Positions 13,048 through 61,387 of a stretch of 64,000 nucleotides of DNA are shown piece by piece (the stretch's first letter is position 1; every line of letters begins with the position of its first letter). The stretch is from Parcubacteria group bacterium M6-OD1-3. GTDB taxonomy: Bacteria > Patescibacteriota > Minisyncoccia > Moranbacterales > UBA9337. Both the position numbers and the translations under genes were made by a program. The stretch lies in the NCBI GenBank assembly GCA_003056165.1, contig LSNR01000002.1:2726-66725 (forward strand), given 5' to 3'. The notes under the pieces are model-generated. The model saw nothing but the letters and a program-made list of their open reading frames with translations. It had not been told where the DNA came from and did no database searches.

Positions 13048-13374
13048 AATCTCCTCCCTATTATTAAGTTTTCAAAAAACTATACTAAACAAAAAACTCG
13101 ACTTTTGTTCAGCCGAGTTACCTAAAGTATAGTTTTTAGACTATTTTCATTGCCTATTTAAACTTAAATATTTTTTTAGATAATTACGGCTGAACAAAAT
13201 ATTCCGAAATGGAATAACAGAAAACGCACCACTCATAAGAGTGTTTGCTTTTTGTTTATTCAACTGATAATATCTATTATTCATAAATATTTAATAAATT
13301 ATTTTATACCTAATTTTTACCATTATTTACTAACTTTGTCAAATTTTATATTTTTACCTATTATTTTTTAACAC

Positions 13375-13406
13375 AAAAAAACAGAGCTAACTCCGTGTTT
13401 TTAATT
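13375..13406. terminator. hairpin element aaaaaaaCAGAGCTAACTCCGTGtttttaatt
   Basis: Read directly; a mirror-image copy lies at 13921-13954. Confidence 0.4.
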
Positions 13407-13639: not shown

Positions 13640-13792
13640 CTAACAATTTTTTTTATGTTGTTGAGGAATTTCAAACCTATCCATATCCTCATCAACAACT
13701 TCTTCCACAACCTTAAACTTAGCATCGATATCTTCAATAGCAACCTCGACACATTTTACCAGCCCAGCAACACCTCTCTTCCATTCTTTCAT
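13640..13792 (-). CDS. small hypothetical protein (50 aa, MKEWKRGVAGLVKCVEVAIEDIDAKFKVVEEVVDEDMDRFEIPQQHKKNC)
   Basis: Own translation; strong SD (aaggaggaagagtaATG) and a terminator hairpin downstream; under the ORF-track size cutoff. Confidence 0.35.
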   Translation of the reverse strand: MKEWKRGVAGLVKCVEVAIEDIDAKFKVVEEVVDEDMDRFEIPQQHKKNC

Positions 13793-13920
13793 TACTCTTC
13801 CTCCTTTTTATTTACGTTAACTCCCTTTCCGTCAGACTATCAACATTAATTATATGTGTCAAGTTGAATAAAAAATTTTATCTACATATATCTTACCACT
13901 TTTTTAAAACAAAAAAAACA

Positions 13921-13954
13921 AAAAAAATACGGAGTTAGCTCCGTATTTTTAATT
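13921..13954. terminator. hairpin element aaaaaaaTACGGAGTTAGCTCCGTatttttaatt (near reverse-complement of 13375-13406)
   Basis: Read directly. Confidence 0.4.
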
Positions 13955-13993
13955 CAAAACTTATATTTTACTGTTAGTAATCTACTTCTTTTT

Positions 13994-14143
13994 TTATTTT
14001 TTCCAATCTTCGATGATAATTTTGTTGCCACTTTTATGCACAGTTAATTTTTGTTTACCTCTCCATTTTAAATCTCGTACAATTTCAATGACATTTTTTA
14101 ATCTCAAATCTGTACAATCTCTTTTTGCTTGTTCTTCATTCAT
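13994..14143 (-). CDS. small AbrB/SpoVT (MazE-like swapped-hairpin) family protein, 49 aa (MNEEQAKRDCTDLRLKNVIEIVRDLKWRGKQKLTVHKSGNKIIIEDWKK)
   Basis: Own translation; ATG 8 nt downstream of the Fic stop (coupled); paralogous to the 58-aa ORF at 61211-61387. Confidence 0.45.
   Translation of the reverse strand: MNEEQAKRDCTDLRLKNVIEIVRDLKWRGKQKLTVHKSGNKIIIEDWKK
14001..14096. repeat. about 90-bp direct repeat, copy A (copy B at 15331-15423), flanking the Fic cassette
   Basis: Near-identical stretch 'ttcgatgataattttgtt...tatgcacagttaatttttgtttacctctccattttaaatctcgtacaatttcaa' read in both places. Confidence 0.8.
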
Positions 14144-14150
14144 ATTTACT

Positions 14151-15200
14151 TTAATTAAAATAATTTTTCACTGCATCTTCAAATTGTTCAATAAAAATTT
14201 GTTTAAAATACGAAATATTATTTATTTCATAAAAAAGCAAAGATGCTTTTTTATATTCTTCAACTTCCACAATCCTATAAGAAAGCGGCACAGAATTATG
14301 AGCCAGCAATATCGCATTTGAAAAGGTTCTCGCAGTCCTCTTATTTCCATCCTCAAAAGCTTGAATATAAGAAATCAAAATCAATCCCAAGAAAGCTTTC
14401 TCAAAAAATAATGCTTTTTTATTTATTAGCACAATCATTTTCTCCAAAGCTTCTTTAATCTGAAATGAATTATCTAGAGGTTTGTATTTCGTACCAGTAA
14501 TACCCACTCCACCATTTCTAATATTTTTTGTAATATCTAGTTTTTTAGTTAAAACAAAATGAAAATACTCTATATCAGAATAATTCAATTTTTTAAACTT
14601 CTCTTTATTTTGAATCGCCTCATTGAAAGCATCTTTATGATTCAAAATCATTTGAGTTTCTTTTTGAGTTTTTCCTTTTCCTGCGACATTTTCTTTGAGC
14701 AATGCCTCAGTGCCTAAAAGTGAATAAGTATTACCCTCAATAGCTGAGGACTTCCACGAAAACTCAATCATTATTCTTTCAAGTTCTTTATTAATTAAAG
14801 TTTGACTGTCATACTTTGAAAAATTTTTTATAAATTCAGTTTGTAATTTTTTAATCCTTTCTTGCTCCTCTGTTGTGAAAATATCATTTTCCAGAATTTC
14901 AAAAATTTCAAAATTAAAATTTTCTTTTATATCCCTTCTCATGTATGGTGTTTTGAAATATTCTTCAGCATCAATTGGTAAAAATATTTTATTTGCATCT
15001 GTAATACTATATTTTACTCCTCTTCCTGATCCAGTCTTTGAAATAAATCCTTGTTCTTGTAAATAATTTAAATCTCTTTGTAATGTTTTTCTTTCTATTT
15101 TAGCACCCAAAAAAGACAGTATATCTGACACTGCTACTTGTGTATCTCTATTTTCCAAAAAAGAAATAATCTTCTTTTGTCGTTCTTGTCTTTTATTCAT
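14151..15200 (-). CDS. Fic/Doc-family protein with N-terminal winged-HTH; Doc-type motif with catalytic His replaced by Gln (QAFEDGNKRTAR)
   Basis: ORF track plus own check of the DNA (caa gct ttt gag gat gga aat aag agg act gcg aga). Confidence 0.75.
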   Translation of the reverse strand: MNKRQERQKKIISFLENRDTQVAVSDILSFLGAKIERKTLQRDLNYLQEQGFISKTGSGRGVKYSITDANKIFLPIDAEEYFKTPYMRRDIKENFNFEIFEILENDIFTTEEQERIKKLQTEFIKNFSKYDSQTLINKELERIMIEFSWKSSAIEGNTYSLLGTEALLKENVAGKGKTQKETQMILNHKDAFNEAIQNKEKFKKLNYSDIEYFHFVLTKKLDITKNIRNGGVGITGTKYKPLDNSFQIKEALEKMIVLINKKALFFEKAFLGLILISYIQAFEDGNKRTARTFSNAILLAHNSVPLSYRIVEVEEYKKASLLFYEINNISYFKQIFIEQFEDAVKNYFN

Positions 15201-15216
15201 ATATACATTATATCAC

Positions 15217-15330
15217 TAATTGCGACATTTTTCAATACTAATTGCGACATTTTTTAAAGAATTTTCTTAAAAAGCCTTATTTTATAACAAATTAATTGCG
15301 ACATTTTCAACTGCTAATCACAACATTTTA
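15217..15330. promoter_or_regulatory. operator-like direct repeats TAATTGCGACATTTT x3 (15217, 15239, 15293) plus a degenerate 4th (15314), in two pairs 22 bp apart, immediately upstream of the Fic start
   Basis: Read directly. Confidence 0.45.
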
Positions 15331-15423
15331 TTTTTCCTAATCTTCGATGATAATTTTGTTGTTGCTTTTATGCACAGTTAATTTTTGTTTACCTCTCCAT
15401 TTTAAATCTCGTACAATTTCAAC
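15331..15423. repeat. about 90-bp direct repeat, copy B
   Basis: See copy A. Confidence 0.8.
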
Positions 15424-15478
15424 TGGCAAAGTGATGGCATAACTGCCATTACTTCGTTTTGATAACTTGCGGATGTTT
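15335..15478 (-). pseudogene. AbrB/SpoVT-like gene fragment without a start codon (…NIRKLSKRSNGSYAITLPVEIVRDLKWRGKQKLTVHKSNNKIIIED*), abutting the GIY-YIG remnant in another frame
   Basis: Own translation of minus strand; paralogue of 61211-61387. Confidence 0.35.
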
Positions 15479-15733
15479 TTACCCTGTTAAATAAGATTTG
15501 AGTCTCTTTTTTAGAAACATCTTTCCGTGATAAGTTTTTAGATATTTTTCTCTATGTGTAGCATCCTGTTGATTTAGACATGCTTCATAATAAATTAATT
15601 TTAAAGGTCTTCTGTTTTTAGTAGATTTAACTTACCCTTTATTGTGTTTCTCAAATCTTAATTTCAAATTTGCAGTATATCCTGTATAAAAATTGTTGTC
15701 CTTTAGTGAATATAAAACGTAAGTATAAAACAT
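15479..15733 (-). pseudogene. small GIY-YIG nuclease gene with an in-frame TAA (MFYTYVLYSLKDNNFYTGYTANLKLRFEKHNKG*VKSTKNRRPLKLIYYEACLNQQDATHREKYLKTYHGKMFLKKRLKSYLTG)
   Basis: Own translation; stop at 15632-15634 in the same frame as both halves. Confidence 0.55.
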
Positions 15734-15847
15734 TATTTTTTTGATTTGAAATTATTTAACAGGGCGAGCCCTTCCAATTTTCTTCTTGCCATATTTTTAT
15801 TTTTTATTATTTTATTAATTAATTTTTCACCCACCCTTAATTAAAAT

Positions 15848-15881
15848 TAATGACCACATTAATGACCACATTAATGTGGTC
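15848..15881. promoter_or_regulatory. tandem/palindromic element taATGACCACATTaATGACCACATTAATGTGGTC
   Basis: Read directly; sits in a non-coding stretch with an unusual GC-rich patch at 15960-16030. Confidence 0.3.
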
Positions 15882-16125
15882 GGTAAATATTTATTTTATT
15901 TTATATTTTTTGAATTTGCAACTATCATTTCATAACCTATCATTTATAATTTACCATTTTCCACCAATTCCTTCAACACCCAAAACACCCGCCCGCCCTC
16001 TGCTACTTACTCGCTCAAATCCCAATCCTATCTAACTGCTTCAATAAAATATTTTTCAATTGTTGCACTGTTTATATTGTCATATTATTTTTTTAAATTT
16101 TGAATTTTTTTCATTTTTACTTCTA

Positions 16126-16839
16126 TTATTTCTTTACAATTTTTAGTCCATCTCGTGTTAAAATTTCATATCTATCTGGTAAATTTACAAAATCTTCTCT
16201 ATGTTGTTTTTTGACTTTAAATGATAAACCTATAAGTTCATTATGCACCTCTGTCATGAAATCATCAAAAAAAGATGTCTCTCTGCCAAATATTTCATTC
16301 ATTTTTTTAGTTTCTTTTTCAATTTCTACAATATCCCATTTACTCCACTCATGTTGTTTAAATGATAAGTTTTGTATATATGCACTATATTCATTCAATT
16401 CCATGGTCAAAATTTTCATTCTATCAATAAATAATATTTCCTTCATTTCTTTTAATTTTGGCATAATACAGATCCACATATCAAAATAGTTCCATAACCG
16501 CAAATATGCTTTAATGAATCTTGACTTACTTTCATTGACCTTCATTACATAATCACTCCATATTTTCAATGCTTCAAAATTTTGTTGAATTGGATCATTT
16601 TTTAAAAGTGGCAATCTCATTTGTATAAATGGCAAATTATATTCACTGACTAAGACAGAGAATTCGATTGCGCATTCATCCATACTTCTTTTTAATTCAT
16701 AAATATTCTTATAAACTTCTAATTTCAATTTTTCTTTCATTATTTTTCTTTGTTGCCATATACCAAAGAAAAAGGCAGCACCCCAGCCAATTACAGTAAC
16801 TACAATAAATACAACTTGGATCCATTCTGTTTTATTCAT
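16126..16839 (-). CDS. hypothetical protein with single N-terminal TM helix
   Basis: ORF track; hydrophobic 'IQVVFIVVTVIGWGAAFFFGIW'. Confidence 0.5.
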   Translation of the reverse strand: MNKTEWIQVVFIVVTVIGWGAAFFFGIWQQRKIMKEKLKLEVYKNIYELKRSMDECAIEFSVLVSEYNLPFIQMRLPLLKNDPIQQNFEALKIWSDYVMKVNESKSRFIKAYLRLWNYFDMWICIMPKLKEMKEILFIDRMKILTMELNEYSAYIQNLSFKQHEWSKWDIVEIEKETKKMNEIFGRETSFFDDFMTEVHNELIGLSFKVKKQHREDFVNLPDRYEILTRDGLKIVKK

Positions 16840-16866
16840 ATTATTTTATTTAAAAAATATAATATA

Positions 16867-17754
16867 TTAATTATCTTTTTTATTATACTTCACTGCAACA
16901 AAACGTAAAAACGCTGCTGACATGCCTACTATCATCTCAACTTCATCACGATCAATTTGTCCTCCATTTCCATGCTTAATATCGTCCATTCTACTTTTAA
17001 TCTGTTTAAATATTTCTTTCTGCTTACCGTTTAAGCCAAGTTTTTTATGATCAACTTTGTCTGTTATGCTCTTAAAACTTTTGCATTTATTGTTTAATAC
17101 TACTTTTACAACTTCGTCACAAGATGCATGTAAATTGGCTATAACATTTTTCAAATCAGAATCATTTCTAGCCTTAGCAAAAAGCTTAACTGCTAACTCA
17201 AAATCATTTAATACGTTATGAAATTTTTCGACATCTAAAACGCCCAACGTATCCAAAATCTCTTGATTTAAATACTTTGCACTTAATGGTAATATTTGTG
17301 GTGCTTTTGTTTTATATTTTTTTATAATTATTCCAAGGATTGGAAAATCTTCTGCATATTTTTGCAATTCTTCAGATAAGTCTTCTAATTCATCAGAAAC
17401 AATTTTATATTTGTAGAATGAATTAAGTAAAATCTGCATATTAATTAAAATTTGTTCAAAAGCTCCATCTAAAATATCGTCTATAAATTCCGCTATCTCT
17501 TTATAATCCCACAAACTATCATACTTATATTCACTTCTATCTAAAAATATCTCTCTGCAACAATCATCCAAAATTCCTTCCCTAGCTTCATATAGTTGAT
17601 TTTGAATTTCCTCATGGCTATTCATTCTTCTAAATAGATATGTTGCCTCCCATATCTCATTTGCAACATACTTACGAAATCCATTTTCAACTTTTTTTCT
17701 ATCAATATCTAAGCCAAATCTTCTATATAAATTTTCATTTAAATTTTTGTTCAT
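16867..17754 (-). CDS. hypothetical protein; C-terminal 'RMDDIKH' resembles an Rx4-6H HEPN/Abi_C-type motif
   Basis: ORF track; motif read by eye only. Confidence 0.45.
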   Translation of the reverse strand: MNKNLNENLYRRFGLDIDRKKVENGFRKYVANEIWEATYLFRRMNSHEEIQNQLYEAREGILDDCCREIFLDRSEYKYDSLWDYKEIAEFIDDILDGAFEQILINMQILLNSFYKYKIVSDELEDLSEELQKYAEDFPILGIIIKKYKTKAPQILPLSAKYLNQEILDTLGVLDVEKFHNVLNDFELAVKLFAKARNDSDLKNVIANLHASCDEVVKVVLNNKCKSFKSITDKVDHKKLGLNGKQKEIFKQIKSRMDDIKHGNGGQIDRDEVEMIVGMSAAFLRFVAVKYNKKDN

Positions 17755-18154
17755 AAATTTATATATTAATATCTACACAAGTAACCCCTATATCAAACCT
17801 TTTCCATTTTTGTGCCTTGACTACTTGTGATTGTTTTAATTTTAATTATTATTTTAAACAAAATAAAAAAATGGAAAGTAAAATGGCGATATATTTTCAC
17901 CAGATAACTTTCCATCTTTTTAGAATTCTAAATTTTTTTAAATTTGTATTTTTTTATTTTTAAAATTTATCTTTTCCGAAAGTCAGATAAGCCGTCTGGC
18001 CATCATATTTTTCATTTCTTTTTATTTTTGAAGTCGTTTTTACTATCAACTTGCGTTAAGTATAACATATTTCAGCATAAAAGTCAAATTAGAAATCACA
18101 CGTTTAAATCATACAACTCATAAACCAACTTATCAATTTGTTTTTCTGATTATA

Positions 18155-18850
18155 TTATACAAAAATATTCCTCTCTTTAGCTCGCAAACTTGTATACCCA
18201 TTTTTTGATATAATAATATGATCAACTAAAGTGATACCGATTATTTTTCCCGCCTCTACAAGACGCTTAGTTATTATGATATCTTCTTCTGATGGACTGT
18301 GCTCACCCGACGGATGATTGTGTGCCACTACAACATGTGAGGCATTGCAACTAATGGCTTTATTAAAAACTTCTCGTGGATGCACTAAACTTGCATTTAA
18401 GATACCGACAGATACTCTATTAACAATTAATTTATTTTGCGTATCAAAAAATAAAATTATAAAATGCTCTTTTTCTTCTCTGCCAATCTTTTCCTTAAGA
18501 TAATTATAAATACTTTCTGAAGAATCTAATTTAAATGAGTTTTCCAATTTTCTTTCTTGATATATTTCTGATACTGCCTGTGATAATTTTAAACCAAATA
18601 CATTTGAAGGTCCGACTCCTTTAATTTGCATTAACTTTTCAATCGGAGCATCAAGCACAGCATCTATAGAATAAAAAGTTTTTAAAAGTTCTTTGGCAAT
18701 TTGCTTGCAATCCTTGCGAGGTGTACCAAGCGTTAAAAGTAATTCAATAATTTCATAGTCATGAAAACCACTCAATCCAGAATTAAGAAATTTTTCTCTC
18801 AATCTCTTGCGATGACCGTGTGATGAATTATTTGTAAATTTGTCATTCAT
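18155..18850 (-). CDS. radC: RadC-like JAB/MPN domain protein
   Basis: 'HNHPSGEHSPSEEDI' JAMM-like motif and 'KGVG' helix-hairpin-helix region. Confidence 0.85.
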   Translation of the reverse strand: MNDKFTNNSSHGHRKRLREKFLNSGLSGFHDYEIIELLLTLGTPRKDCKQIAKELLKTFYSIDAVLDAPIEKLMQIKGVGPSNVFGLKLSQAVSEIYQERKLENSFKLDSSESIYNYLKEKIGREEKEHFIILFFDTQNKLIVNRVSVGILNASLVHPREVFNKAISCNASHVVVAHNHPSGEHSPSEEDIIITKRLVEAGKIIGITLVDHIIISKNGYTSLRAKERNIFV

Positions 18851-18854
18851 AATT

Positions 18855-20768
18855 TTACATTATTGATGCACCATCAGAAATAACTCCGTAACTCTCCGGA
18901 TCTTTGGAAAATCTATTTCTAAAATATTCTCTTGTTTCCTCATCTTCTGAAAAAATATAGCACCCTTTCATCCCTCTAGTCATAAGTGTGCGATACGTAT
19001 TTTTTATAATAGGTTCAGCAAGTCTTTGCGCATATTCTTCACCTTTTTCTTTCGCTATTTTTTTAATACCTTTTAATGATTGATCTGAGGTAGCACGCTC
19101 TCTATAATCAGTAATAATTTTTTCATCACGCACAATTAAATCGCTACCAATGATAACGCCTACATAATCAAGCTCCAATCCTTGACAAGTATGAATACAA
19201 CCAACTTCATTCACTGAGTTTGGATGTATAATCCAAGCTTGTCCATGTTTCATTAAATTCCACCGCGCTTTATAATTCCCAATTTCAATATCAAATAATA
19301 TAGGTTCTTTTTTTGAAATCCATTTCCATGTATACCCCGCAATAACCCGTGATTTATTATTTATTTTATTTTTATTAATTATTTTACTATGCAAAACTTT
19401 TGGATTATCATATACGCCGAAATTATAATCAATATCATCAAGCGTATAATTTGCAGTTTTCCTAATTTGCAATACATCATCAAGCCATGCTAAATATCCA
19501 TCTGATCCATTACACCTAAACTGTGACTCAAGATTCATTTCCAATACATCAGCATCAGCTTTTTTAGCCCATTTTTTAATTTCTTCTTTTGAACCAATAT
19601 CCTTTAGCGTGACTCTTTGATCTTCGTCTATAAAAAATACTGCCAATTTTGCTGAGTCAATAATTTCCTTTATTTGATTCACTCCTAGATTGCCATACAA
19701 ACCAGATCTTTCATTTAATCTGTGTGCTTCATCAACTAATAGTACATCAAATAAATCAACTTCTGTTTTCGTATATGAGCCTGAACCTTTAAACATATTT
19801 TGAATACGAACGCGCGCATGCCCTCCTTCTGCTAATTTCCGACTAAAAACCTCCCTTGGCGCAGAATTCTTTGTTACATATTGCACAACTTTTTGTCTAT
19901 TAGTAAATTCAGATAATAAATTAATTGCGACAACAGACTTACCAGTTCCAGGACCACCTTCAATAATCAAAACTTGTTTACCTTTTGTTTCTGCTAATTT
20001 CGCTAAATACAACACTTTCTCATACACGACTTTTTGTTCATCTAAAAGTATAAATTCTTTATTGCCATTCAGCATTGATGCGAGTGAATCAGCCAAGGCT
20101 TTCGACGGACGAATTTTTCCATTTTCTATTTCATAAAGAATATTACCACCACCATATTTGACATGTGCCTTTATAAAATTTGTTAACTTCTCCTCATCAC
20201 CTTTAAAAAATAATGGGGCTTTTTTAATATATTTTTGATATTGCTTAGATTTAATATCTTCATCCTCCTTATAATTATGCAAATATGCACAAGGATCAAG
20301 ATTTATTTCTCCATCTTGAATTCCAGAATTATAATCCTCAAGAAATGTTACATACGACCAAACCTGATAAGAAGGATGACTAACCTCTCTTTGACCACCT
20401 CCTACATATGTTTCGACAACCACACCATCCATATCAGTCTCCTCTATAGCTTGCACTTTCTCCCATTGTTTTAGCTCAACTACAACAGCATTCTTTTGCT
20501 TTTCTTGATCCAATCCAGTAATTATAAAATCAATTCGTTTCGATGTCTGAGGTATCATATATTCGATTGCAATACCTGCCTCATTTGGAATCTCGTCATC
20601 GTCTATGACATTTCTCATGAATTGCATTGAGTTAATCCATGAAGTAACTTCTCTCGGTGATACACTATGTCCTGTTTCTCTAATCATAGCACCTTTAATG
20701 CGTGTATCAATACGATTAGCTACAACATCTTGTATAAAACCTTGCTTTGTTGCTGAATAAATTATCAT
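18855..20768 (-). CDS. DUF2075-family P-loop ATPase (Schlafen/helicase-like)
   Basis: N-terminal DUF2075-like region; Walker A 'GGPGTGKSV'; Walker B 'LLVDEAHRL'. Confidence 0.65.
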   Translation of the reverse strand: MIIYSATKQGFIQDVVANRIDTRIKGAMIRETGHSVSPREVTSWINSMQFMRNVIDDDEIPNEAGIAIEYMIPQTSKRIDFIITGLDQEKQKNAVVVELKQWEKVQAIEETDMDGVVVETYVGGGQREVSHPSYQVWSYVTFLEDYNSGIQDGEINLDPCAYLHNYKEDEDIKSKQYQKYIKKAPLFFKGDEEKLTNFIKAHVKYGGGNILYEIENGKIRPSKALADSLASMLNGNKEFILLDEQKVVYEKVLYLAKLAETKGKQVLIIEGGPGTGKSVVAINLLSEFTNRQKVVQYVTKNSAPREVFSRKLAEGGHARVRIQNMFKGSGSYTKTEVDLFDVLLVDEAHRLNERSGLYGNLGVNQIKEIIDSAKLAVFFIDEDQRVTLKDIGSKEEIKKWAKKADADVLEMNLESQFRCNGSDGYLAWLDDVLQIRKTANYTLDDIDYNFGVYDNPKVLHSKIINKNKINNKSRVIAGYTWKWISKKEPILFDIEIGNYKARWNLMKHGQAWIIHPNSVNEVGCIHTCQGLELDYVGVIIGSDLIVRDEKIITDYRERATSDQSLKGIKKIAKEKGEEYAQRLAEPIIKNTYRTLMTRGMKGCYIFSEDEETREYFRNRFSKDPESYGVISDGASIM

Positions 20769-23361: not shown

Positions 23362-23545
23362 TCTTTTGTATAAAGTAAATCCACAATCTTTTGTGGTTCC
23401 CCTCTTTAATTAAAAACCGAAGTTTTTAATATGAATGCTTGTATTCAGAGTCGTATTCGTTTGGTATTTCGCCGAGGCGAAATAACCGACCTTATAGATT
23501 CATCCCATTGCTATAAGCAATAGGAGTACACCTTAACTCCCTAGA

Positions 23546-25645
<2,100 letters not shown>

Positions 25646-26134
25646 AAATTGAGTAATTTTCCCATATTAGAAGTTTTCAGAACATCCTAGTAAGGATCCC
25701 TGTCCGCCTCTGGAGGAAAACTCTCAATAAAATGAGCAAAAAAAATAAATTTAATGCCACATTGAGATTTATTAAAATCTTAAAGATTTTAATTATCTAA
25801 AGAAAATAGAAAACTATTTTCAAAAATTTGAAACTATAACTCTGAAATAAACATTGATTAATATTTTAAAAAAATACTAATCTTCAGGGAACCACAAAAA
25901 ATAATGATTTTACTACTACCTAATCAATATCTGTTTTAGATATAAAAATATAACTAAAACTGATTTTTTATGATTCTGTCCAAATTTCTAACCGTCAAAA
26001 ATTAGAAAATTTGGAACTATTTATCCAGACACTAAATTTGGTGTCGGATTCTTGTCAAACTGCTGTCATTAACTGCAAATTGATATGGAGAAAAATATAT
26101 CGCTGTAAAAATTTCTCCAGATTATCTGAAGTTA

Positions 26135-61210: not shown

Positions 61211-61387
61211 TTATTTTTTCCAATCCTCAATAATTATTTTACTTCCTCTTTTTTTAACAACCACCTTTTGTTTCTCTCGCCATTTTAATTTTCTAACAAT
61301 CTCAATAGGAATTGTAACAGCAATTGATTGCTTACCAACCTTAGTCAATTTTCTTATGTTTCTATCTTCTAATTTTCTTGTAGACAT
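61211..61387 (-). CDS. AbrB/SpoVT (MazE-like) family small DNA-binding protein, 58 aa (MSTRKLEDRNIRKLTKVGKQSIAVTIPIEIVRKLKWREKQKVVVKKRGSKIIIEDWKK)
   Basis: Own translation; swapped-hairpin signature 'GKQSIAVTIPIEIVRKL'. Confidence 0.55.
   Translation of the reverse strand: MSTRKLEDRNIRKLTKVGKQSIAVTIPIEIVRKLKWREKQKVVVKKRGSKIIIEDWKK

Follow-up and report, generated by a model that had tools for sequence, protein, structure and literature searches.

A 64,000-nucleotide (nt) stretch of contig LSNR01000002.1 from Parcubacteria group bacterium M6-OD1-3 (positions 2,726 to 66,725; here called the window) carries on its minus strand a gene for a protein of 349 amino acids (aa), in which a winged helix-turn-helix (wHTH) domain precedes a Fic domain with Gln in place of the catalytic His (Table 1). 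We read the region as a decayed type I restriction-modification (R-M) locus in which a self-repressing wHTH-Fic protein persists, its Fic domain serving as a sensor module and not as a toxin, and to this reading as a whole we assign a probability of about 0.6. The proteins of this type, i.e., the Gln-Fic family, form a very large group found in several phyla, in which all Fic active-site residues are kept except the catalytic base.

The Pfam model Fic (PF02661) matches residues 205-298 of the protein at 37.4 bits against a cut-off of 24 (E 4.6e-9). The AlphaFold2 (AF2) model of the protein, with a mean predicted local distance difference test score (pLDDT) of 94 and a predicted template modelling score of 0.86, has a Fic fold, and the closest fold in the PDB is that of FICD (Foldseek against 6i7k: TM score 0.60, E 1.2e-9, 240 columns). 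In the model a winged helix of the order helix-helix-helix-strand-strand spans residues 3-66 and is followed by the helical Fic core. The N-terminal wHTH that an earlier note on this DNA had proposed is thus present in a model of high pLDDT; the Pfam scan gave weak matches of this region to HTH_DeoR, Penicillinase_R and Arg_repressor. No NCBIfam model is specific for the protein, for which only weak HTH and Doc matches were returned, and PADLOC reported generic Fic similarity alone (SoFic, 2e-14) together with a weak match to PDC-S04. The ratio of non-synonymous to synonymous substitution rates (dN/dS) of the gene against its relatives is 0.06-0.12, solo copies included. The gene is intact and under purifying selection.

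The Fic motif, QAFEDGNKRTAR, aligns with HPFTDGNGRTAR of FICD, and its core, QAFEDGNKR, departs from HxFx(D/E)GN(G/K)R at the His alone, the remaining positions all matching. That Gln replaces the catalytic His had been claimed before, and both this alignment and the relatives bear it out. A word-indexed homologue search gave 7977 significant matches; among the best 120 of these, which are 69-100% identical and nearly all 345-358 aa long, 118 have Q-x-F-x-D-G-N-K-R. An exhaustive search over representatives at 50% identity gave at least 2151 clusters, 197 of them at E<=1e-30, and Gln is present in 110 of the 112 motif-bearing representatives among the best 150 clusters. The relatives are encoded by at least 494 species-level genomes of Patescibacteria, Bacteroidota, Alphaproteobacteria, Cloacimonadota and others. 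In an alignment of 42 diverse members, reaching down to 31% identity, Q280, F282, D284, G285, N286, K287, R288 and R291 are invariant, as are S151, E155 and G156 of an upstream SxxxEGN motif. Gln is conserved throughout a very large multi-phylum family, and Q280 is genuine and not a sequencing error.

Gln-variant Fic proteins have been noticed in two earlier papers. One described ‘Doc clade D2’, 45 sequences with the pattern Qx[F/Y]x[D/E][G/V]NKR (Khater and Mohanty, 2015, PMC4454073), and the other ORF25, a metagenomic Fic/Doc open reading frame (ORF) with the motif QFFFDGNKRTAR, whose overexpression was not toxic to E. coli (Vercammen et al., 2013, PMC3948609). QAFEDGNKR fits the D2 pattern, and both Gln for His and NKR are held in common, a likeness to the D2 sequences and ORF25 that is established at the motif level only. 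The sequences in these papers are called Doc-like and single-domain there, and a wHTH, an inhibitory motif, direct-repeat operators and embedding in R-M loci are not described there. The window copy is an ordinary member of a large uncharacterised clade.

The protein had been called Doc-type, a label that did not hold. The Doc model of NCBIfam (TIGR01550) scores 15.6 bits, below its cut-off of 38.65; besides its Fic core, the 349-aa protein has a wHTH as well as an inhibitory helix, whose motif aligns with that of FICD. The sole Doc-like trait is the Lys of NKR (K287), which is shared with Doc of phage P1. Autoregulation by a DNA-binding module would be conceptually like that by Phd in the phd-doc system, but Doc is a single domain of ~125 aa with an essential His, whereas the window protein has two extra modules, no His and no Phd-type partner. 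A motif of the form (S/T)xxxE(G/N), i.e., SSAIEGN, lies N-terminal to the Fic core in the same chain and falls on the inhibitory motif TVAIEGN of FICD, which places the protein in class II; by sequence and by fold alike, the nearest solved relatives are class II FICD proteins. With the class II AMP-transferases (FICD/HYPE, C. elegans FIC-1, Shewanella SoFic and C. difficile Fic) it has in common the Fic fold, the N-terminal inhibitory motif and the motif residues F, D, G, N, R and R. It differs from them in the catalytic His, here Gln, and in the second Gly, here Lys, the sequence identity being 18-20%; the wHTH is N-terminal here and C-terminal in SoFic. For HTH-Fic fusions, a Phd-like control of fic expression has been proposed (Kinch et al., 2009, PMC2686095). 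Those fusions mostly have ArsR- or DUF-type HTH domains and the canonical His, whereas the Gln-Fic family has a legible operator architecture that co-varies with the protein.

This architecture lies directly upstream of the gene. Repeats in 22-nt pairs had been described there and autoregulation suggested from them. The repeats, of 15 nt, resolve into three exact copies of AAAATGTCGCAATTA, at 15217, 15239 and 15293 and nowhere else in the 64-kb window, and a fourth copy at 15315 that has three mismatches and keeps the 22-nt phase. The proximal pair is interlocked with a predicted promoter: one repeat occupies the –35/–10 spacer and the other abuts the –35. An extended –10 element, TGnTATAAT, ends 6 nt before the Fic ATG in the window (15200-15212) and in most close loci of the candidate phyla radiation (CPR; homologous positions in L003-L013, the L numbers denoting loci of relatives). 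A ribosome-binding site does not fit into the 6 nt between the –10 hexamer and the ATG, and a leaderless mRNA is thereby implied. All close CPR relatives have four direct repeats 5' of Fic in two pairs, at about –130/–108 and –55/–33 from the ATG, with the pair spacing of 22 nt retained and with lineage-specific cores (TGTCGCAAT, TGCAGCAAT, TGTCGTGAA and TGTCTTATT). Of 80 loci, 40 have an 11-mer repeat with at most one mismatch at exactly 22 nt, and each other spacing between 12 and 44 nt was found in only 0-6; among more distant loci a 22-nt repeat pair was present in 34 of 73, against 0.45 expected from shuffles. A fifth ‘repeat’ inside the coding sequence (14682-14693) was dismissed as a chance match, as it is truncated and not conserved in relatives.

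The core of the operator also varies together with the protein. TGTCGC operators pair with SDILSFL...RKTLQRDL in seven loci and TGCAGC operators with SEILDFL...RTTLQRDL in five, and the co-varying residues are 26-31 and 39, i.e., helix 2 and the start of helix 3, the presumed recognition helix. The window protein has an L003-like (TGCAGC-type) backbone yet TGTCGC-type helix residues. Taken together, the conserved four-site layout, the 22-nt pairs, the covariation of core and protein and the promoter overlap give good support to autorepression as it had been proposed: the Fic protein would repress its own leaderless promoter through the N-terminal wHTH, bound to four repeats in two 22-nt pairs, of which the proximal pair takes up the –35/–10 spacer and the –35 flank. 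Legible repeats at 22-nt spacing that co-vary with helix 2/3 residues make this family a tractable case for the role of a ‘dead’ Fic domain.

Downstream of the Fic stop lies a 49-codon ORF which the earlier note had taken for a translationally coupled AbrB/MazE-like gene in the reverse of the phd-doc order. Its length, its close spacing to Fic and the AbrB/MazE-like character of its last 30 residues stand, but its first part is hsdR: the translation divides into MNEEQAKRDCTDLRLKNVI, which is hsdR-derived, and EIVRDLKWRGKQKLTVHKSGNKIIIEDWKK, which is AbrB-like. The key comparison is with L003, the closest relative with context (Fic 86% identical), where the order is hsdM, a KilA-N gene, hsdS, Fic, hsdR and an AbrB-like gene. 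There hsdR encodes 770 aa, begins 8 nt past the Fic stop with MNEEQTKRDYIDPKLKDAGW and is followed directly by a 58-aa AbrB/MazE-like gene (MARRKLENRNTRKLSKQTNGSYTVTLPIEIVRELKWRDKQKLVVRKSGDKIIIEDWKK). Over its first 51 nt the window ORF agrees with the start of L003 hsdR at 41 positions, after which identity collapses into the AbrB-like 3' end, and the spacer between the Fic stop and the hsdR-type start is alike in both. The ~18-19 N-terminal residues of the ORF stand where residues ~1-27 of the AbrB-like domain (of 58 aa) would be. In the Pfam scan the 49-aa product had no match, MazE_antitoxin (PF04014) included; intact 58-aa AbrB-like proteins score 27.9 and 28.8 bits with that model against a cut-off of 24.7. 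A deletion has fused codon ~18 of hsdR to codon 29 of an AbrB-like gene, giving a 49-codon chimera; the ORF is a deletion scar and no coupled antitoxin, and the reversed phd-doc order has no basis. A lesson from this locus is that a short ORF placed tightly behind its neighbour may be what a deletion has left of the following gene in the operon, joined to something else.

The small ORF also fails as a partner of Fic when other loci are considered. Such an ORF stands beside none of more than 90 homologous Fic loci, an outcome that the earlier note had itself named as refuting its claim. Within L001-L087, AbrB-like matches were confined to the window, to L001 and L002, which nearly duplicate it, and to the L003 contig, where they lie past hsdR. 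Conversely, none of 80 AbrB-like metagenome loci has Fic, and we rejected the AbrB-like gene as a regular Fic neighbour and, as the adjacency is not conserved among homologous Fic loci, a Fic and AbrB/MazE toxin-antitoxin pair. No conserved partner gene was found beyond the hsd genes of the CPR clade, either by Pfam among 111 neighbour proteins or by clustering of 1424 flanking ORFs from 80 loci; the Fic gene is a single-gene module with its own operators.

The direct repeats that flank the Fic gene had been explained by a cassette inserting into an older AbrB-like gene and duplicating its end. The repeats are real, with an extent of 97 nt each and not the previously given 14001-14096 and 15331-15423; from their alignment they are the 3' ends of two paralogous dead copies in a multi-copy AbrB-like family, and it is the loss of hsdR by deletion that sets the boundary of the right-hand repeat. 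A Fic toxin with a coupled AbrB/MazE-like antitoxin, arriving as such a cassette, could draw on these repeats, on an ORF 8 nt after the Fic stop whose C-terminal 30 residues are AbrB-like, and on SoFic, for which a small downstream antitoxin is known (PMC12249575). It is barely credible all the same, given 18 hsdR-derived codons in place of the first AbrB-like residues, the missing Pfam match, the empty neighbourhoods of homologous Fic genes, the absent catalytic His and an hsdR remnant that separates Fic from the right-hand repeat, within the limits of the supposed cassette.

Linkage to type I R-M genes is wider than L003. The order hsdS-Fic-hsdR recurs in L009 and L010, and hsdS-Fic-hsdM in L012; hsdR starts 8 nt after the Fic stop in L003 and L009 and 6 nt after it in L010. 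Solo Fic genes keep decayed hsdR stubs after the same short spacer, reading MNETEAGG... in L008, INESKTRAEHTNPKF... (with ATG changed to ATA) in L089/L090 and MDEVEARDEE-stop in L091/L092. Present or past type I R-M linkage amounts to 8 of the 14 loci of the CPR clade. The gene is flanked by hsdS and hsdR or hsdM in L003, L009, L010 and L012, and the window keeps only the 18-codon hsdR stub, no further hsd remnant being detected there by tblastn with HsdR, HsdS and HsdM. The best explanation of these comparisons is that the region is the remnant of a type I R-M locus. As an observation apart, the hsdR-removing deletions repeatedly ended inside the first 20 hsdR codons, in four lineages.

In the R-M-embedded relatives the operator-controlled Fic promoter would also drive hsdR, such that the Fic protein would gate the restriction subunit. 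The C proteins of type II R-M systems are ~80-aa Xre-type HTH dimers that act on inverted repeats (C-boxes). Like them, the R-M-embedded Gln-Fic would be a DNA-binding protein encoded just 5' of a restriction gene and co-transcribed with it, with repeated operators 5' of its own gene. It differs in being a 349-aa wHTH-Fic protein with direct repeats at 22-nt spacing and a type I hsdR, and the likeness is one of working principle only; membership among the C proteins was rejected, since there is neither an Xre-type HTH nor an inverted-repeat C-box and gene position alone resembles theirs. The protein might be a dedicated hsdR controller of this kind, with the window copy a functionless leftover. 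The hsdR genes of L003, L009 and L010, without a promoter of their own and 6-8 nt behind the Fic stop, agree with this, as do the operators between hsdS and Fic and the frequency of R-M linkage in the CPR clade. We consider it very unlikely, however: solo copies, that of the window included, are full length with intact operators and a low dN/dS despite their decayed hsdR stubs, and homologues from Bacteroidota and other phyla have the repeats at 22-nt spacing and no R-M neighbours. Distinctly unlikely, too, is the bolder proposal that Gln-Fic is a nucleotide-sensing pseudoenzyme-repressor gating hsdR, the first type I R-M controller and later a general sensor-repressor. If true, a sensor-repressor gating hsdR would be the first described controller for type I R-M, a working analogue of the C protein, and in Patescibacteria the dead-Fic question is in any case tied to how type I restriction systems decay and are controlled.

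For the Fic domain itself we put forward, more tentatively than for autorepression, that it is neither a toxin nor an AMP-transferase. Gln replaces its catalytic His, but the phosphate-binding nest (D, G, N, K, R..R) is otherwise invariant, as is the inhibitory Glu; against a toxin speak the family-wide Gln, the absence of a partner in 80 loci, the harmlessness of ORF25 and the dN/dS of 0.06-0.12. With the same reserve, the domain has most likely lost its transfer chemistry and kept the phosphate-binding pocket as a sensor, and it would then be a nucleotide- or ligand-binding regulatory module that tunes DNA binding. H214, though invariant, was rejected as a candidate to stand in for the lost base, since the alignment shows that FICD shares this His.

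The strongest competing account keeps an enzyme. PrrC sits between hsdS and hsdR in EcoprrI, a position shared by the closest Gln-Fic relatives (L003, L009 and L010). Gln-Fic could accordingly be an active enzyme of altered chemistry, an auto-inhibited effector of abortive infection tied to type I R-M as PrrC is to EcoprrI, either as a hydrolase, with the inhibitory Glu and Gln positioning water, or as a Doc-like phosphotransferase acting via the motif Lys, and with the wHTH merely limiting dose. A motif that is invariant except at the His, where Gln is strictly conserved and not variable, suits such an enzyme, as do the weak PADLOC matches to SoFic and PDC-S04 and a defence-like context with a helicase of AbiO/Nhi-like matches nearby. 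Fic/Doc and RhuM genes have moreover been recorded in R-M operons, Fic/Doc as toxins (PMC3710099). We nevertheless regard this account as unlikely. The general base is absent without any family-specific replacement having been found, H214 being common to FICD; the Gln-variant ORF25 is non-toxic in E. coli; and most members are solo genes in housekeeping contexts. Compared with second-line effectors such as PrrC, Gln-Fic has neither an ABC-ATPase nor a HEPN domain, lacks the catalytic His and is mostly not R-M linked.

Several points tell against our preferred reading of a self-repressing sensor in a decayed R-M locus. The covariation with the operator core rests on two operator classes with phylogenetically related members, although the window protein, whose backbone is L003-like but whose recognition residues belong to the other class, speaks against shared descent as the whole cause. 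That Gln and the entire nucleotide-binding motif are strictly conserved would also fit an altered-chemistry enzyme. Most members outside the CPR clade are without R-M neighbours, so control of hsdR cannot be the general function. Finally, the junction between AbrB-like copy A and the distal operators could be a second deletion, with loss of hsdM and hsdS, or a tandem duplication, and the L003 contig stops before the region upstream of hsdM, such that the history of the junction is not visible there. An AbrB-like gene immediately precedes hsdM in L160-L165 and immediately follows hsdR in L003; with such genes at both R-M ends, an ancestor of the order AbrB-hsdM-hsdS-Fic-hsdR-AbrB and two deletions is plausible, the alternative being the tandem duplication.

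Table 1. Features at and around the Gln-Fic gene, in window positions unless a locus is named.
Feature	Position	Strand	Basis or remark
wHTH-Fic(Gln) gene, intact, 349 aa	14151..15200	-	ORF list, Pfam, AF2 model, dN/dS
N-terminal wHTH	14976..15200	-	AF2 H3-16, H24-31, H37-49, E53-56, E63-66
Inhibitory-helix motif S151-S-A-I-E155-G-N, form (S/T)xxxE(G/N)	14730..14750	-	aligned to FICD TVAIEGN
Fic motif QAFEDGNKRTAR, Q280 (CAA, 14361-14363) at catalytic His position	14328..14363	-	read in DNA; aligned to FICD HPFTDGNGRTAR
Predicted promoter TTGAAA-17 nt-TATAAT, TG extension	15207..15235	-	best promoter-like site in 13800-16000, 11/12 positions
Proximal operator pair (putative), two exact AAAATGTCGCAATTA, 22 nt apart	15217..15253	-	repeat search
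Distal operator pair (putative), exact repeat 15293-15307 and 3-mismatch copy 15315-15329, 22 nt apart	15293..15329	-	repeat search
49-codon ORF	13994-14143	-	start 7-8 nt after Fic stop
hsdR 5' stub, ~18 codons (MNEEQAKRDCTDLRLKNV), first part of 49-codon ORF	14090..14143	-	compared with L003 hsdR start
AbrB/MazE-like copy B 3' end, last 30 codons and stop, in-frame fusion to hsdR stub	13994..14089	-	alignment with 58-aa AbrB-like genes
hsdR stubs, ~6-18 codons, four lineages	L008:5589-5640, L089:5077-5140, L091:5047-5085, window 14090-14143		
Terminator-like hairpin with T run, 3' of 49-codon ORF	13923..13950	-	closes Fic transcription unit
97-nt direct repeat, 95% identical	13992-14088 / 15326-15422	-	left copy (15326..15422) is 3' end of AbrB-like copy A
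AbrB-like copy A, 3' portion (NIRKLSKRSNGSYAITLPVEIVRDLKW...IIIED)	15337..15476	-	TGG to TAG at codon 56; no start codon
AbrB-like copy A, first 7 codons (MARRKLE)	15772..15792	-	
GIY-YIG unit inserted in AbrB-like copy A	15477..15771	-	13-nt inverted ends 15482-15494 and 15752-15764; in-frame TAA 15632-15634
Operator-like palindrome 5' of AbrB-like copy A (GACCACATTAATGTGGTC, duplicated in part)	15852..15881	-	homologous to site 5' of L003 AbrB-like gene
Intact 58-aa AbrB/MazE-like paralogue, reference for broken copies	61211..61387	-	MazE_antitoxin 27.9 bits, cut-off 24.7

Upstream of the Fic gene, AbrB-like copy A is dead, disrupted by a GIY-YIG insertion after codon 7 and by a stop in place of W56, with its own promoter region kept. 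The inserted gene, a unit of ~300 nt, matches Pfam GIY-YIG at E 2.8e-15, and its window copy has TAA for Lys34. The inverted ends of the unit are CCCTGTTAAATAA and TTATTTAACAGGG; in L138/L139 a gene of 80% identity has the same ends on either side, and a compensated variant of them, CCCAGTGAAATAA and TTATTTCACGGGG, flanks a GIY-YIG gene in L141/L142/L134. GIY-YIG units repeatedly adjoin AbrB-like genes, with a further copy at L173:11775-12020, and the unit may be a small mobile element or a homing unit. The 58-aa AbrB/MazE-fold family has 231 metagenome relatives and is multi-copy in these genomes; four copies were compared, two from the window and two from L003/L173, and each has a different palindrome 5' of it. 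Members of the family immediately precede R-M genes of several types (type I hsdM, type III mod, type ISP) or immediately follow a restriction helicase (L160-L165, L130, L167/L171, L102 and L003/L173), and the 58-aa AbrB-fold protein may be an R-M controller.

Further upstream of the Fic locus, at 16126-20768 on the minus strand, are ORFs of 237 and 295 aa to which no function was assigned, a RadC-like gene and a 637-aa helicase with PADLOC matches to AbiO, Nhi and PDC-S41, a context that looks like a defence island. The metagenome contigs L088, L089 and L091 end within 100-400 nt past the Fic gene; these contig ends, together with 70-86% protein identity across CPR lineages, suggest a strain-variable or horizontally mobile region that breaks assemblies. 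L005 has a second, shorter Fic-family gene (531-1451), which encodes 306 aa and precedes the Gln-Fic gene by 1.5 kb. On the other side of the window locus, two terminator-like segments of ~45-55 nt (13364-13406 and 13900-13954), 84-94% identical, form a direct repeat 536-548 nt apart that brackets a 50-aa ORF at 13640-13792. Elsewhere in the window, the 16S rRNA gene (23545-25647, minus strand) measures 2103 nt against a model of 1533 positions, with ~570 nt of insertions, and a 135-aa ORF without a Pfam match lies within its span on the opposite strand (25062-25469).

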